From Sedimenticola sp. (GTDB taxonomy: Bacteria; Pseudomonadota; Gammaproteobacteria; Chromatiales; Chromatiaceae): a stretch of 64,000 nt of DNA. The notes under the pieces are model-generated. The model was not told the origin of the DNA and did not search any database. It saw nothing but the letters and a program-made list of their open reading frames with translations. The translations under genes were made by a program, and so were the position numbers. Shown one piece after another: positions 49,125-62,586 of this stretch; position 1 is the stretch's first letter, and each line of letters begins with the position of its first letter. The stretch lies in the NCBI GenBank assembly GCA_026985055.1, contig JALSQZ010000008.1, forward strand, positions 21,412 to 85,411, given 5' to 3'.

Positions 49125-50030
49125 TTGTCAGCAGAAAGCAACTTGTCCATCATCCTGCCCGCCTACAATGAAGCCGGCGTGGTGGGGACTGTCGTGCAGG
49201 GTTTGAGGGAGTCTTTTCCTCATGCCGAAATACTGGTTGTCGATGACCGTTCCCGGGATGAGACCGCGGAAGAAGCTAGTGCAGCTGGCGCTCGGGTGAT
49301 CTCGCACAAGTACAACATGGGCAATGGCGCTGCGATCAAGACCGGCGCCCTGCATGCCACTGGAGATGTGCTGGTATTCATGGATGCTGATGGCCAGCAT
49401 AGCGCGGAAAACGTGCGCGCCTTGTTGACAAAAATAGATGAAGGTTATGACATGGCCATTGGCGCGAGAGATTCTGACGGTCAGGCGAACCGGCGCCGCC
49501 ATTTTGGGAATGGTTTGTTAAATCGTCTGGCTTCTGTATTGACCGGACACAGAATTGATGATCTGACTTCCGGTTTCAGGGCCGCGCGGGCAAACACATT
49601 CCGCCAGTTCCTGTATCTGTTGCCAAATGGCTTTTCCTATCCAACGACATCCACCATGGCTTTTTTGCGCTCGGGGCATTCGGTGGCATTTGTGCCTATC
49701 AAAGTACATAAACGCAAAGGTGCTAGCAAGATAAGCCTTGCCAAGGATGGCGTACGTTTTTTGGTCATTGTCATGAAAATGACCACGCTATTTTCACCAA
49801 TGCGGGTATTTTTCCCATTAAGTATACTGTTCTTTGTGTTGGGAGCAGTTCGCTATGGTTATTTCTATTGGGAGACAGGAGGGTTTTCTGCTTTTGCTGG
49901 TGTCATGTTCATTACCGCAATACTAATCTTCTTGATTGGATTGATATCCGAACAGGTTACTGCGTTACATTATGGGATTTCTCGTGCAGAAACGGATTAT
50001 AAGAATTTGGATGATAATTCTTCCTCTTGA
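49125..50030 (+). CDS. GT2 glycosyltransferase, DPM1-like (polyprenyl-phosphate glycosyltransferase)
   Basis: IILPAYNE, VVDDRSRD, MDADGQH and DLTSGFRA motifs, plus two C-terminal TM helices. Confidence 0.85.
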   Translation: MSAESNLSIILPAYNEAGVVGTVVQGLRESFPHAEILVVDDRSRDETAEEASAAGARVISHKYNMGNGAAIKTGALHATGDVLVFMDADGQHSAENVRALLTKIDEGYDMAIGARDSDGQANRRRHFGNGLLNRLASVLTGHRIDDLTSGFRAARANTFRQFLYLLPNGFSYPTTSTMAFLRSGHSVAFVPIKVHKRKGASKISLAKDGVRFLVIVMKMTTLFSPMRVFFPLSILFFVLGAVRYGYFYWETGGFSAFAGVMFITAILIFLIGLISEQVTALHYGISRAETDYKNLDDNSSS

Positions 50031-50077
50031 TCATAGTTTATAGTTCAGTATTTTTTAAAGGGTTATTTAAGTGCTAG

Positions 50078-50283
50078 GGAACCTCTGATCAAGTTTGGAT
50101 CAAGCGGATGGTGATGCAATATGTTTCTATACAAGGCGAAAATTGAGTTTAATAGCGAAAGCTATTGCGAAGATTGGCAAATTTTCGATCCTGAACATGC
50201 TGCTGACCGGTATTCCTGCGGGTCGGGAAGTAGCCGCGTGTTTTGGGTGCAAGATGCGAGTTCATGATTTAGTCTGAGGTCTC
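50078..50283 (+). mobile_element. MITE-like repeat family B, copy 1 (206 bp)
   Basis: Imperfect TIRs GGAACCTCTGATCAAG / TTTAGTCTGAGGTCTC. Shares ATACAAGGC, GCTATTGCGAAG and GCAAGATGCGAG.TCATGATTTA with 62607-62889. Confidence 0.7.
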
Positions 50284-50324
50284 TTGGCTATACTGAAAAG
50301 TTTCCTCTATGAGGGAGGTGTTCA

Positions 50325-51050
50325 TTGTCGACAATTAAATTAGCACGCTTTCTTGACTTTCTTAAGGGGAGTCTTCTTCATCCGCAATGGTTGTCTGACC
50401 GATACCACTTGCTTTCCAGACGCAAGTTGCGTGCGATAAAGAAAGGTTTGGTTTTTGATGTTGGTAGTGGAAATAGTGATTTGCGTCAATTATTGGATCC
50501 TTCAATAAGCTTGGTTCGTATTGACTATCCTAGTACTAATGCGCTTTACAACAAAAAGCCAGATATATATGCGGACGCGAAATGCTTGCCTGTTTCTGAC
50601 CAATGTGCAGATGGTGTTCTTCTTCTGGAAGTTATTGAACATATATTTGACTATAAGGTGGTTTTTAGAGAATGTCACCGGATTCTATCGTCTGAAGGGA
50701 TTTTGTGTATTTCTGTTCCATTCATATATCCAATACATGATTCTCCTTATGACTTCCATAGATTTACTCGATATGGTCTGGAGAATGAGCTTCATATTGC
50801 TGGATTTGATGTTATGGAAGTTCTGCCGCATGGTAACTCTATTATTGTAGCAATGCAGATGTTTAATCTGTCTTTGTTGGAAATAGCTAAAAAATGTATT
50901 GAAAAAAATTTGTTTGTCGGTGTTTGTGTTTCATCTATGGTGTATATTGTTTGTGTGTTGAATAATGTTCTTTCTTTTCCTTTTTTGTCGTTAAAATTTA
51001 ATAATTCTGCTGTTTTTGGCTATTTCATTATTGCCACTCCTGCTGGCTAA
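50325..51050 (+). CDS. Class I SAM-dependent methyltransferase
   Basis: VFDVGSG motif I, ADAKCLPV, LEVIEHI and HDSPYDFHRFT motifs; TTG start after GGGAGG; very AT-rich. Confidence 0.85.
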   Translation: MSTIKLARFLDFLKGSLLHPQWLSDRYHLLSRRKLRAIKKGLVFDVGSGNSDLRQLLDPSISLVRIDYPSTNALYNKKPDIYADAKCLPVSDQCADGVLLLEVIEHIFDYKVVFRECHRILSSEGILCISVPFIYPIHDSPYDFHRFTRYGLENELHIAGFDVMEVLPHGNSIIVAMQMFNLSLLEIAKKCIEKNLFVGVCVSSMVYIVCVLNNVLSFPFLSLKFNNSAVFGYFIIATPAG

Positions 51051-51061
51051 GAGAATTTCTC

Positions 51062-60720: not shown

Positions 60721-60803
60721 TTATTAATCTCCGTAAATGATCAGATTATTTAGTGAATGTCCTTGTAGTCACCGTGTGACCACACTGAACATAACCTCAA
60801 TTA

Positions 60804-60819
60804 AGCATGAATCGTGCCA
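60804..60819 (-). promoter_or_regulatory. Sigma54 (-24/-12) promoter of pilA
   Basis: Minus strand reads TGGCAC-GATTC-ATGCT (GG-N10-GC), ~85 nt upstream of pilA1. Confidence 0.75.
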
Positions 60820-60897
60820 GATTCAAAAAAGTAATCGTAATTCGCTGTAATGCCAAAGGTATTTTGTGTAAACGGGAGCTGTGAATCTGCCGTAGAG

Positions 60898-60914
60898 CTG
60901 ACGTTTTTTGTCAG
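60898..60914. promoter_or_regulatory. Candidate enhancer-binding-protein (PilR-like) site
   Basis: Palindrome CTGAC-N7-GTCAG, ~80 bp upstream of the sigma54 element. Confidence 0.35.
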
Positions 60915-60927
60915 TTGCTGACGTAAA

Positions 60928-62586
60928 TCAGCCGTTCCTGGTGTTGAATTCATAAAGACTGTAGCCATTGCTGGAATATACGGGTTTCAAACAGCTTTTT
61001 AGAAAATGGTTAAGCCGGAGTTTTTGGCCGTCAGGTAGCCGTTTGGCCCATCCCATGAACAGATCATTGCGAATCATCAGTAGAGAAAAACCTGAGCGCT
61101 TTGCGCCCAGACAGTTTGCTTCGCGGTACTGGGGGTCCTGCAGGGCTTTTTGCAGCCATCCGGAATCGGTAGTCACCGGAAGATTGAAGTAGTAGCGACG
61201 ATTGCCCATATACAGAGCCAGCACATGATGATTCGCATCATATTTTTGGTTCAGATATTGAATGAGTGAATATTCGCCAAGCCGTTTGGATAATCGTGTT
61301 TCTCTGTCTTCCTTCCCTGTCAGATAGGGGATGGGATCGATTTTGTTGTATAACTGCTCGATATAATGGATATTTGGAAATAGCCAGGCGATTGACAGCA
61401 GGGCGATGATTCCATTGGCAGTCAGCGGTGCCTTGGATGCAACTCGCTGCCAAATTTTCTGCATGCTGTAAATTGACAGCACGACCAATGGAGGAAGCAC
61501 CGGGGCCACCCATCGAATCCGCATGTCCGTCTGAAAGAAGACAATAAGAATGAACAGCAGGGAAAAAGTACTGAACAAGCTATATTCTGGCCATGATTTT
61601 TCTTCATCCTTGGAGGGGAGCAACAATAAGGCCAAGGGAAGCAGCAACAGAAGCAGATTCAGTTGGCCATCGAAATGTTGTGGGTCATCATCTCGCCCGT
61701 CATAGAAAATGCGTAGAGGAATCAGCAGAATATCAAGAGCATTTTCATTATAGAGTAGGTCTCTATATAAAAAATGGGCATGAGAACCTACCTGAGGTGT
61801 TTGATTGCCAGTCGAATCTTCCGTTGCCGTATTGGCGGGTGTTGGGTTGAAGAATTGTTCATACAACGGAAAAACGGGGTTGCCTTTCCAGATCCAATTG
61901 CGAGCCATCCAGGGGGAAAAAACCAATAGCGCAATGAGTGCGAACAGTACGCCATTCCTCCATGCGCCATTGGAGAATTTTTTCTCTTTTCTTTGCGCAA
62001 TTCGCATCTGAAAGAAGGGCCCCAGCAATGCTAGCAAGGTAAATGTCACAAGCCCGTTGTATTTGGTGGACAAAGCCAGGCCACAGGCAAGAGCTGACAG
62101 GATCAGCCATTTTTTCTTTCGTGTATCTTCCAGCCAGAGTGAAAGGGAGAAAATGGCCGCGGCAGTAAAGAACACTAGACCAAGATCCACATAGACCATG
62201 ACCGATAGTCTGATGATAACCGGGATAGTCAGAAAGAATAGTGCGCCCAGCAATCCCCATGTGCTGCCTAGTCTTCTTCTGATGAACAGGAAGAGAAGCA
62301 ACGCCGTGGCAAGTGCAAATGTGAAATGGATATACTTTGCGCCGATATCCCATTTCAGCGCCAGTGGCACCATGTACAGCAGATCCAGCAACTCCGGATA
62401 ATAAGAGAACTCTATTTGTGGAAGCTCCACTATGCCATTGTGCTGGAGATAAAGTTTGGGTACCGCTAGATGATGGGTCAGGGCATCGCGGCTTTCCGGG
62501 GGTACCGATGCCATCAGCAGGATTAGGAGAGTGATCGCCACCAGCCCTGCCGCCAACAATTTCTTCAACCACCGGGATTCTTGCAC
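60928..62586 (-). CDS. GT-C superfamily (ArnT/PMT-like) membrane glycosyltransferase
   Basis: First-loop RDALTHHL..PK, YVDLG, STKYNG and SPWMARN motifs; about 12 TM helices plus a small periplasmic C-terminal domain. Confidence 0.68.
   Translation of the reverse strand: MQESRWLKKLLAAGLVAITLLILLMASVPPESRDALTHHLAVPKLYLQHNGIVELPQIEFSYYPELLDLLYMVPLALKWDIGAKYIHFTFALATALLLFLFIRRRLGSTWGLLGALFFLTIPVIIRLSVMVYVDLGLVFFTAAAIFSLSLWLEDTRKKKWLILSALACGLALSTKYNGLVTFTLLALLGPFFQMRIAQRKEKKFSNGAWRNGVLFALIALLVFSPWMARNWIWKGNPVFPLYEQFFNPTPANTATEDSTGNQTPQVGSHAHFLYRDLLYNENALDILLIPLRIFYDGRDDDPQHFDGQLNLLLLLLPLALLLLPSKDEEKSWPEYSLFSTFSLLFILIVFFQTDMRIRWVAPVLPPLVVLSIYSMQKIWQRVASKAPLTANGIIALLSIAWLFPNIHYIEQLYNKIDPIPYLTGKEDRETRLSKRLGEYSLIQYLNQKYDANHHVLALYMGNRRYYFNLPVTTDSGWLQKALQDPQYREANCLGAKRSGFSLLMIRNDLFMGWAKRLPDGQKLRLNHFLKSCLKPVYSSNGYSLYEFNTRNG

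Follow-up and report, generated by a model that had tools for sequence, protein, structure and literature searches.

The window analysed here is a stretch of 64,000 nucleotides (nt) from a Sedimenticola sp. genome (assembly GCA_026985055.1, contig JALSQZ010000008.1, positions 21,412 to 85,411 of the forward strand). Open reading frame (ORF) listing and domain scans revealed one 13.5 kb island in it, which extends from the pilus-subunit genes to the pilus motor genes. We propose, with a probability of about three in four, that the island is dedicated to the O-glycosylation of type IV pilins and is of the TfpW kind, but that its sugar donor is a different one. Only 43 nt past the second of its two pilin genes begins the gene for a 670-residue membrane protein, in which a C-type glycosyltransferase (GT-C) domain is followed by tetratricopeptide repeats (TPR). 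The island also encodes a family 2 glycosyltransferase (GT2), and the polyprenyl-phosphate sugar made by this GT2 would be the donor.

The strongest evidence for the predicted link to the pilins is the conserved gene neighbourhood, which was analysed in two samples. The first one comprises 80 loci of relatives in species genomes, mostly of Rhodanobacteraceae and Lysobacteraceae (Xanthomonadales), with others from Acinetobacter, Solimonas and Woeseiaceae. The second, independent sample was based on 401 evenly drawn Pseudomonadales species; 20 loci were fetched from among the strongest matches. In the first sample, a pilin gene is located directly 5' of the GT-C gene in 72/80 loci; of the eight others, several but not all are short contigs. 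The GT-C is usually followed by a paralogue, and many loci contain two or three tandem paralogues. A GT2 gene (50–59% identity) lies within 10 kb in ∼21 of the 80 loci, and it stands beside pilB wherever pilB is visible. The GT-C membrane domain was found in 90 of the 401 Pseudomonadales species. Among the 20 Pseudomonadales loci, a pilin gene is directly 5' of the GT-C gene in 18, GT2 is adjacent in 19 and pilB-pilC-pilD adjoin in 17. Overall, the GT2 orthologues are 48–59% identical to that of the window; they adjoin GT-C in Pseudomonadales and pilB in Xanthomonadales.

Some loci contain much more of the island. In locus L103, from Thiolapillus sp. (GCA_054045205.1), the genes are collinear with those of the window, from zapD-coaE-pilDCB across all 12 island genes to the outermost one, which encodes a second GT-C of PMT_2 type. 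In Luteimonas salinisoli (L037), the entire pilA–pilB interval consists of genes for pilA, GT-C, GT-C, pilA, acetyltransferase, UPF0104 protein, methyltransferase, family 4 glycosyltransferase (GT4), methyltransferase and GT2. Beside pilA-GT-C-GT2, the Pseudomonadales loci L123 and L119 both encode homologues of methyltransferase 2 (56% identity), the amidotransferase (34–36%), GT4 (34–43%; 43% in L119) and the UPF0104 protein (30–32%) of the window; L123 additionally encodes the radical-SAM enzyme (62%) and the acetyltransferase (54%). Contig C187 of the Sedimenticola assembly itself (locus L095, positions 1–7547) carries on one strand pilA, pilA, GT-C/TPR, GT2, Sulfotransfer_3, UPF0104, acetyltransferase and the start of pilB. 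The GT-C/TPR protein, GT2 and PilB encoded by C187 are 30%, 51% and 57% identical to those of the window, respectively. We considered C187 as an allele of the window locus and rejected it, as PilB is only 57% identical; C187 either encodes a second pilus system or derives from another organism in the bin. Its sulfotransferase gene suggests a sulfated glycan.

More than 4,000 homologues of the 670-residue protein were found, and their public names are ‘tetratricopeptide repeat protein’ or ‘protein O-mannosyl-transferase’. The AlphaFold2 model of the full-length protein has a predicted local distance difference test score (pLDDT) of 84; residues 1–440, which form the transmembrane (TM) domain, gave a pLDDT of 87 and a predicted TM-score (pTM) of 0.90 when modelled alone. 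With the full-length model, the Foldseek matches were dominated by TPR proteins. Because these swamped the search, it was rerun with the TM domain alone, and the top 15 PDB matches were then all GT-C protein glycosyltransferases (STT3A/B, yeast Stt3, AglB, PglB, Pmt4 and Pmt1/2), with probabilities of 0.85–1.0 and TM-scores (TMq) of 0.36–0.53. Below the top 15, the probability was 0.6 for one match and ≤0.14 for the others. Judged by its model, the 670-residue protein has the GT-C fold. Residues ∼425–664 are helical repeats, which match the TPR folds of TPR_14, PilF, OGT and Tom70.

Invariant among the relatives are F40-D41-D42, R75-P76, K205 (in SKANG), Y291-X6-P298 and E371-H-R-N-Y375; F40-D41-D42-W follows TM1, and both D41 and D42 are invariant in two alignments, of 19 and 18 sequences. 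The eukaryotic TMTC1-4 proteins combine an 11-TM GT-C with TPR repeats; their loop 1 carries DD and ..RP motifs, their loop 3 a motif with a Lys and their loop 5 an E.R..Y-like motif (PMC7801869). D41-D42, R75-P76, K205 and E371-H-R-N-Y375 of the 670-residue protein parallel these motifs. However, TMTC1-4 are enzymes of the endoplasmic reticulum that use dolichyl-phosphate mannose on cadherins, and the likeness is at the level of architecture and motifs: DUF1736, the TMTC segment between TM7 and TM8, has no Pfam match (E ≤ 0.01) in the 670-residue protein. The initial annotation had described a ‘TMTC-like’ GT-C right after the pilins and suggested a structure search. The search bore out that a GT-C with TPR is located there, whereas the TMTC label had to be replaced; TfpW is the better comparison.

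TfpW, a protein of 646 residues, is predicted to span the membrane with 11 helices; its periplasmic loop 1 contains a DDX motif, its loop 4 a YX6PFX7P motif, and its C-terminal part is a periplasmic TPR domain (bioRxiv 10.1101/2020.04.19.049825). The tfpW gene is directly 3' of pilA, and the enzyme glycosylates pilins with a polyprenyl-monophosphate sugar as donor; putative homologues encoded after pilA were described in Acinetobacter, Azotobacter, Teredinibacter, Pseudomonas indica and Kingella, and one Acinetobacter venetianus protein in this position was counted among them (same preprint). Like TfpW of P. aeruginosa/paraeruginosa group IV (Pa5196, PA7), the 670-residue protein shows the same architecture, DD loop, TPR domain and gene position. 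Different from TfpW, it keeps only half of the YX6PFX7P motif: Y291-X6-P298 is followed by R-P-Y-x-x-G-L-F-N-D, with no F after P298 and no P eight residues on. The Acinetobacter lwoffii homologue, which is encoded after pilA and is 37% identical to the 670-residue protein over 621 residues, also lacks the full motif. A homologue search seeded with the A. lwoffii protein returned Acinetobacter proteins only.

The donor pathway differs from that of the TfpW system. The TfpW donor, D-arabinofuranose, is supplied via DPPR synthase and DprE1/DprE2, whereas the partners of the GT-C in the island are an ArnC/GtrB-like GT2 and tailoring enzymes; the island also has no TfpX, and it has the extra PMT_2-type GT-C. 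No member of the D-arabinofuranose pathway families (DPPR synthase, DprE1 and DprE2) is present among the island proteins, and the ALO domain (PF04030), used here as the DprE1 marker, has no match in the 99.99%-complete genome. ALO-domain proteins occur in 122 of the 401 Pseudomonadales species, and many of them are strong matches of DprE1-like size (∼430–540 residues); a cross-check of the coordinates listed for the 401 genomes found no ALO/DprE1-like gene clustered with a GT-C gene. One candidate D-arabinofuranose-type locus, G334, was ruled out, as it is of the GT2 type too. The proposed route of the island is a variant of the known TfpW route and involves no new principle. As a separate observation, ALO proteins are far commoner in Pseudomonadales than pilin arabinosylation would require.

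The GT2 contains a DAD motif and, as read from the sequence, two C-terminal hydrophobic (TM) helices. Compared to PDB proteins, it aligned across its whole length, C-terminal membrane helices included, with ArnC (E 4e-17, residues 6–282) and GtrB, and with Pyrococcus furiosus dolichyl-phosphate mannose synthase (DPMS) over the catalytic domain (residues 6–171). The best NCBIfam models were AglJ (134.9 bits, cut-off 325), PpgS and dolichyl-phosphate (Dol-P) hexose transferase, and all scored below their cut-offs. Enzymes of the ArnC, DPMS, GtrB, AglJ, PpgS and Dol-P hexose transferase types place one sugar onto a polyprenyl monophosphate; the GT2 is proposed to be the maker of the lipid-phosphate-sugar donor. 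The UPF0104 protein is a candidate flippase for the lipid-linked sugar. Members of its family are present in the pilA–pilB interval of L037, L028, C187, L103, L119, L123 and other loci, and Pfam placed no island protein in the GtrA- or ArnE/F-type small flippase families. In other loci the UPF0104 slot is taken by another exporter, such as an ABC transporter after GT2 (L073, A. lwoffii) or a protein with a weak MOP-type match (L054, Dyella). Such substitutes, where UPF0104 is missing, fit a flipping step and fall short of proof.

Several enzymes of putative tailoring function accompany the GT2. A homologue of methyltransferase 1 is located directly after GT2 in L037, L018, L074, L105 and L109, and GT4 is beside GT2, or one methyltransferase away, in more than 14 related loci. 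The AsnB-like amidotransferase matches TIGR03108 from residue 22, its best NCBIfam model being the XrtA/PEP-CTERM amidotransferase, and the acetyltransferase is WbbJ/WcaF-like. The radical SAM/SPASM enzyme, with a putative sugar-tailoring role, is the most conserved island protein. The second GT-C, 552 residues in length, scored above the Pfam cut-offs of PF13231 (42.2 bits, cut-off 26.1) and PF02366 (40.8 bits, cut-off 22.7). Homologues of it together with pilin and GT-C/TPR genes are present in L103, at the same position, and in L081, a metagenomic relative, where it is downstream; they are absent from the other 80 and 20 related loci. The role of this 552-residue protein is the least certain part of our account. 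In L081, the GT-C/TPR and PMT_2 GT-C genes are separated by a gene (2529–4652) for a 707-residue membrane protein of the sulfatase family, which includes phosphoethanolamine and phosphoglycerol transferases; it could represent a second kind of pilin modification.

A route of loading a sugar on lipid phosphate, flipping it and transferring it by a GT-C had been suggested in the initial annotation. Each of these steps has a matching gene in the island, and the comparative genomics (72/80, 18/20 and 19/20 loci) ties these genes to pilins. From the observed gene content, folds, motifs and linkage we infer all steps of the pathway. At the cytoplasmic face of the membrane, the GT2, which is of ArnC/GtrB/DPM1 type, would take a sugar from its nucleotide-activated form and attach it to polyprenyl (undecaprenyl) phosphate. 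Still on the cytoplasmic side, the two methyltransferases, the AsnB-like amidotransferase, the radical-SAM enzyme and the acetyltransferase would then tailor this sugar, or a short lipid-linked glycan into which GT4 has extended it. Resembling the MprF flippase domain, the UPF0104 protein would carry the lipid-linked sugar to the periplasmic face, where the 670-residue GT-C would move it to Ser/Thr of both pilins ahead of their assembly. In this step, the catalytic DD loop would be periplasmic and the TPR domain would grip the protein substrate. The PMT_2-type GT-C would probably attach a further sugar in the periplasm.

Similar logic is known for other systems: one sugar is attached to undecaprenyl phosphate by a GT2, crosses the membrane with the help of a small flippase and, once outside the cytoplasm, is passed on by a GT-C (PMC11127046, PMC5836110). 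GtrA/GtrB/GtrC, ArnC/ArnEF/ArnT and CsbB/GtcA/YfhO share this logic with the route proposed for the island, and GT2 and GT-C are encoded together in both. Different from these systems, in which the acceptor is O-antigen, lipid A or teichoic acid, the proposed acceptor of the island is the pilin protein; the slot of GtrA or ArnE/F is held by UPF0104, and GT4 and five tailoring enzymes are added. Actinobacterial Ppm1 and Pmt (GT39) carry out protein O-mannosylation via polyprenyl-phosphate mannose made by a GT2 and transferred by a GT-C. Although the 552-residue protein matches PMT/PMT_2 (Pfam), the actinobacterial Pmt is Sec-coupled, transfers mannose only to many secreted proteins, has no pilin link and lacks TPR. 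In the archaeal Dol-P pathway (Haloferax AglJ/AglD GT2s and AglS/AglB GT-Cs), the monophosphate-linked sugar is extended by soluble glycosyltransferases, methylated and then flipped. By analogy, extension and methylation of this kind before flipping would explain the conserved GT2-GT4-methyltransferase neighbourhood; the archaeal pathway belongs to another domain of life and performs N-glycosylation of S-layer proteins and archaellins, whereas O-glycosylation is proposed for the island.

PglL/TfpO enzymes belong to the Wzy_C family, are unrelated to GT-C/TPR and transfer undecaprenyl-pyrophosphate-linked glycans en bloc. Their target and purpose, pilin O-glycosylation, are the same as proposed for the island, but the enzyme family is different. 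To our knowledge, type IV pilin glycosylation has been elucidated for just two routes, namely PglL/TfpO with undecaprenyl-pyrophosphate glycans and TfpW with D-arabinofuranose. We found no description of a GT2-coupled TfpW-like system or of the tailoring cassette in the literature. The kind of system is known from TfpW, in that a GT-C with TPR transfers a lipid-monophosphate sugar to pilins; the GT2-coupled variant is new, uncharacterised and very widespread.

Several points weigh against this assignment. The organism is uncultured; its genome was assembled from a metagenome and comprises 233 contigs, with 2.4% contamination. Homology to TfpW is deduced from the domain architecture, the motifs, the location of the gene and what the preprint says of homologues. 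Pfam detects only a weak TPR signal in the 670-residue protein and no GT-C domain; the E-values of the TM-domain Foldseek matches are marginal (2e-3 to 0.3), so the GT-C fold call leans on the exclusive hit list and the motifs. When the profiles of the GT-C/TPR and PMT_2 families were compared, the probability was only 15%, which indicates that the two island GT-Cs are not close relatives. The flippase role of UPF0104 is assumed from the MprF flippase domain, and UPF0104 is present in only 10/80 and 5/20 related loci. For a GT4 acting on a monophosphate-linked sugar we know of archaeal precedent and of no well-studied bacterial one. One strong family member (L118, 7983–9842, 619 residues) is flanked by priA and argS and has neither a pilin nor a GT2 gene nearby; this orphan may have another substrate. 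O-antigen and exopolysaccharide loci, too, typically encode GT4s, AsnB-like amidotransferases and methyltransferases.

The last point raises the alternative that the island is ordinary polysaccharide or lipopolysaccharide-modification cargo in a recombination hotspot, and that its GT-Cs decorate a glycan or lipid A in the manner of GtrC or ArnT. The XrtA/PEP-CTERM match of the AsnB-like protein, the WbbJ-like acetyltransferase, the low guanine plus cytosine (GC) content, which points to horizontal acquisition, and the ArnT-like label given to the 552-residue GT-C by public sources would all agree with it. We nevertheless regard it as very improbable: the GT-C/TPR gene follows a pilin gene across several orders and is paired with GT2 as described above, the pilA–pilB interval of L037 consists solely of these genes, and the nearest solved folds of the 670-residue protein, which bears a TPR protein-binding domain, are protein-modifying rather than glycan-modifying GT-Cs. 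That the 670-residue protein is instead a TPR factor for pilus assembly without enzymatic activity, similar to PilF/PilW or TfpY, and that the sugar genes are unrelated to it, is scarcely credible. It is true that PDB sequence searches with both island GT-Cs gave no useful match and that the 670-residue protein retrieved TPR proteins only, including PilF (E 0.23), in line with the Pfam result and the full-length Foldseek search. However, its 11-helix N-terminal domain modelled alone matches GT-C enzymes, GT2 is coupled to it in 19/20 loci, and the DD loop is invariant together with Lys/Arg positions that bind lipid phosphate in GT-Cs (PMC7801869).

A broader specificity also has to be considered. 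The GT-C/TPR protein could be a general periplasmic protein O-glycosyltransferase, like actinobacterial Pmt or TMTC, with the pilins merely its most abundant clients. TPR domains bind many partners, the L118 member is far from any pilin, and tandem paralogues are frequent. Set against these, tight pilin linkage is the rule, no other candidate substrate gene is conserved in the related loci, and TfpW, the only characterised enzyme of this architecture, is pilin-specific according to the literature; we consider a general enzyme improbable.

The dedicated pilin-glycosylation reading can also be extended. In the extended model, an AglJ-like GT2 would start and GT4 would extend a short, heavily tailored oligosaccharide on undecaprenyl monophosphate, to which amide, methyl and acetyl groups and a radical-SAM modification would be added; an MprF-type flippase domain would export it and the TfpW/TMTC-like GT-C would transfer it to pilin, with the second GT-C adding a sugar. 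This would amount to an archaeal-style bacterial protein O-glycosylation, encoded by an exchangeable cassette carried by much of Xanthomonadales and one in five Pseudomonadales species, and serving as a shield against pilus phages. We hold it to be unlikely as a whole; it is worth weighing because the GT2–GT4 neighbourhood is conserved, and because Pfam and NCBIfam scans found no initiating phosphoglycosyltransferase among the island proteins.

Taken together, the data indicate that a GtrB/ArnC-like lipid-phosphate sugar synthase and variable tailoring genes are the usual partners of the TfpW architecture. The module is common, being present in the 90/401 Pseudomonadales species by its GT-C domain, in many Xanthomonadales and in the sulfur-oxidiser-like lineage of the window. 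If the proposed function is true, pilin glycosylation would have a third chemistry, probably the commonest of the three, and protein O-glycosylation of the TMTC/PMT type would have a clear counterpart in bacteria.

The gene layout of the window is listed in Table 1. The six genes from GT2 to the radical-SAM enzyme are on the plus strand and divergent from pilB. Most of the initial annotation concerned this layout, and the domain scans agree with it: the pilin genes and pilB-pilC-pilD are all on the minus strand and 10.9 kb apart (∼11 kb had been claimed), the DPM1-like GT2, the UPF0104 protein, GT4 and the tailoring enzymes are encoded between them, and the second GT-C is directly 5' of the pilins. 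A GC drop had likewise been noticed from spot counts; the island bins range from 0.38 to 0.50, with 0.377 at 50–51 kb and 0.43–0.50 across 49–63 kb, compared to 0.52–0.63 in the other 1-kb bins of the window. Methyltransferase 1 is the GC minimum of the island (0.38). A tRNA search found no tRNA gene nearby that would mark the island boundary. The reported absence of a PglL/TfpO-like gene was also reproduced, as none of the 12 island proteins matched Wzy_C or PglL_A; the sole Wzy_C protein of the genome lacks the PglL_A motif and is encoded on contig C165, with a UDP-glucose dehydrogenase gene as its neighbour. The island is bordered by a gene of the Uma2 family (putative restriction endonuclease-like; 63526–63996, minus strand), and another one is located in the glycosyltransferase cluster of L081 (7742–8161).

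Table 1. Genes of the island and its pilBCD flank in the window, with the identity of each product to its counterpart in Thiolapillus sp. locus L103
Feature	Position	Strand	Length, domain matches and remarks	Identity to L103 (%)
coaE	44405–45019	−	CoaE match; neighbour of pilBCD	66
pilB-pilC-pilD	45031–48874	−	T2SSE, T2SSF, Peptidase_A24; conserved flank of island	87–92 (PilB, PilC, PilD)
GT2	49125–50030	+	301 aa; PF00535 (E 2.5e-30)	53
Methyltransferase 1	50325–51050	+	241 aa; PF08241	55
GT4	51062–52234	+	390 aa; PF00534, PF13439	54
AsnB-like glutamine amidotransferase	ORF 52171–54090, likely start (MCGFLG) at 52234	+	PF00733 (E 1.4e-85), GATase_7	63
Methyltransferase 2	ORF 54039–54842, likely start at 54087	+	PF08241 (E 2.8e-24); overlaps the AsnB stop	68
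Radical SAM/SPASM enzyme	54846–55985	+	379 aa; PF04055, PF13186	81
UPF0104/LPG_synthase_TM membrane protein	56094–57002	−	302 aa; PF03706 (E 1.8e-14)	66
Hexapeptide-repeat acetyltransferase	57004–57723	−	239 aa; PF00132 (E 1.7e-16); hydrophobic N-terminus	77
GT-C + TPR membrane protein, TfpW-like	57733–59745	−	670 aa; directly 3' of pilins	58
Pilin 2	59788–60237	−	149 aa; PF00114 (E 9.2e-24)	69–74 (both pilins)
Pilin 1	60289–60720	−	143 aa; PF00114 (E 1.4e-27), N_methyl	69–74 (both pilins)
Second GT-C (PMT_2/PMT, ArnT/GT39-like)	60928–62586	−	552 aa; PF13231, PF02366; directly 5' of pilins	41

As listed in Table 1, PilB, PilC and PilD of L103 are much more similar to those of the window than the island proteins are (41–81%). 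The island thus sits in a fixed chromosomal slot by pilBCD, in which the gene order is kept while the genes diverge or are replaced far faster than the flanks. The gene order of the two copies is identical, but the GC content of the L103 island is 0.55–0.60, compared to the low values in the window; the window copy may have been replaced from a low-GC donor. Within the genus, a GT-C homologue of any kind was found in 12 of 19 other genomes, with identities of 21–67%, one genome giving a weak partial match only. Fast divergence in a fixed slot is typical of O-antigen and pilin loci under phage or immune selection. Next to conserved pilBCD, it fits selection by pilus-specific phages, through surface variation or receptor masking. 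In P. aeruginosa, pilus-specific phages are blocked by each of the two pilin glycosylation systems (bioRxiv 10.1101/150227). As its fast divergence fits such selection, the locus would be useful for phage host-range prediction and glycoengineering.

Pilin 1 is likely the major type IVa pilin PilA, and pilin 2 is a second type IVa pilin. The C-termini of pilin 1 and pilin 2 are ...LPSACR and ...LPSACRN, respectively, in line with the endings ...ACR and ...ACRN of the initial annotation. The sole sigma-54-type −24/−12 match of the window (TGGCACGATTCATGCT, 60819–60804, minus strand) is located ∼85 nt 5' of pilin 1. One GC-rich hairpin of 13 bp (60246–60279, minus strand; ΔG −27.4 kcal/mol, z −6.5) follows the pilin 1 stop codon, just ahead of pilin 2. 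The layout of promoter match and hairpin suggests high expression of pilin 1 as the major pilin, with the amounts of pilin 2 and the GT-C determined by read-through. The leader of pilin 2 (60199–60237, minus strand) is 13 residues in length, and it has Ala at −1, before the Phe of the cleavage site, in place of the usual Gly. In locus L074, from an uncultured gammaproteobacterial chromosome (4393–9878), seven tandem pilin genes are located 5' of the GT-C/TPR gene.

The A. lwoffii locus L073 (5288–17561) contains one PglL-type gene (PglL_A + Wzy_C + Wzy_C_2) and an insertion sequence transposase gene just 5' of pilA-GT-C-GT2. By gene content, two different pilin/protein glycosylation systems appear to stand side by side in this locus. 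After pilA-GT-C-GT2 come genes for an ABC transporter and for the dTDP-sugar enzymes 4,6-dehydratase, thymidylyltransferase and DegT aminotransferase; the sugar is probably an amino-dideoxyhexose.

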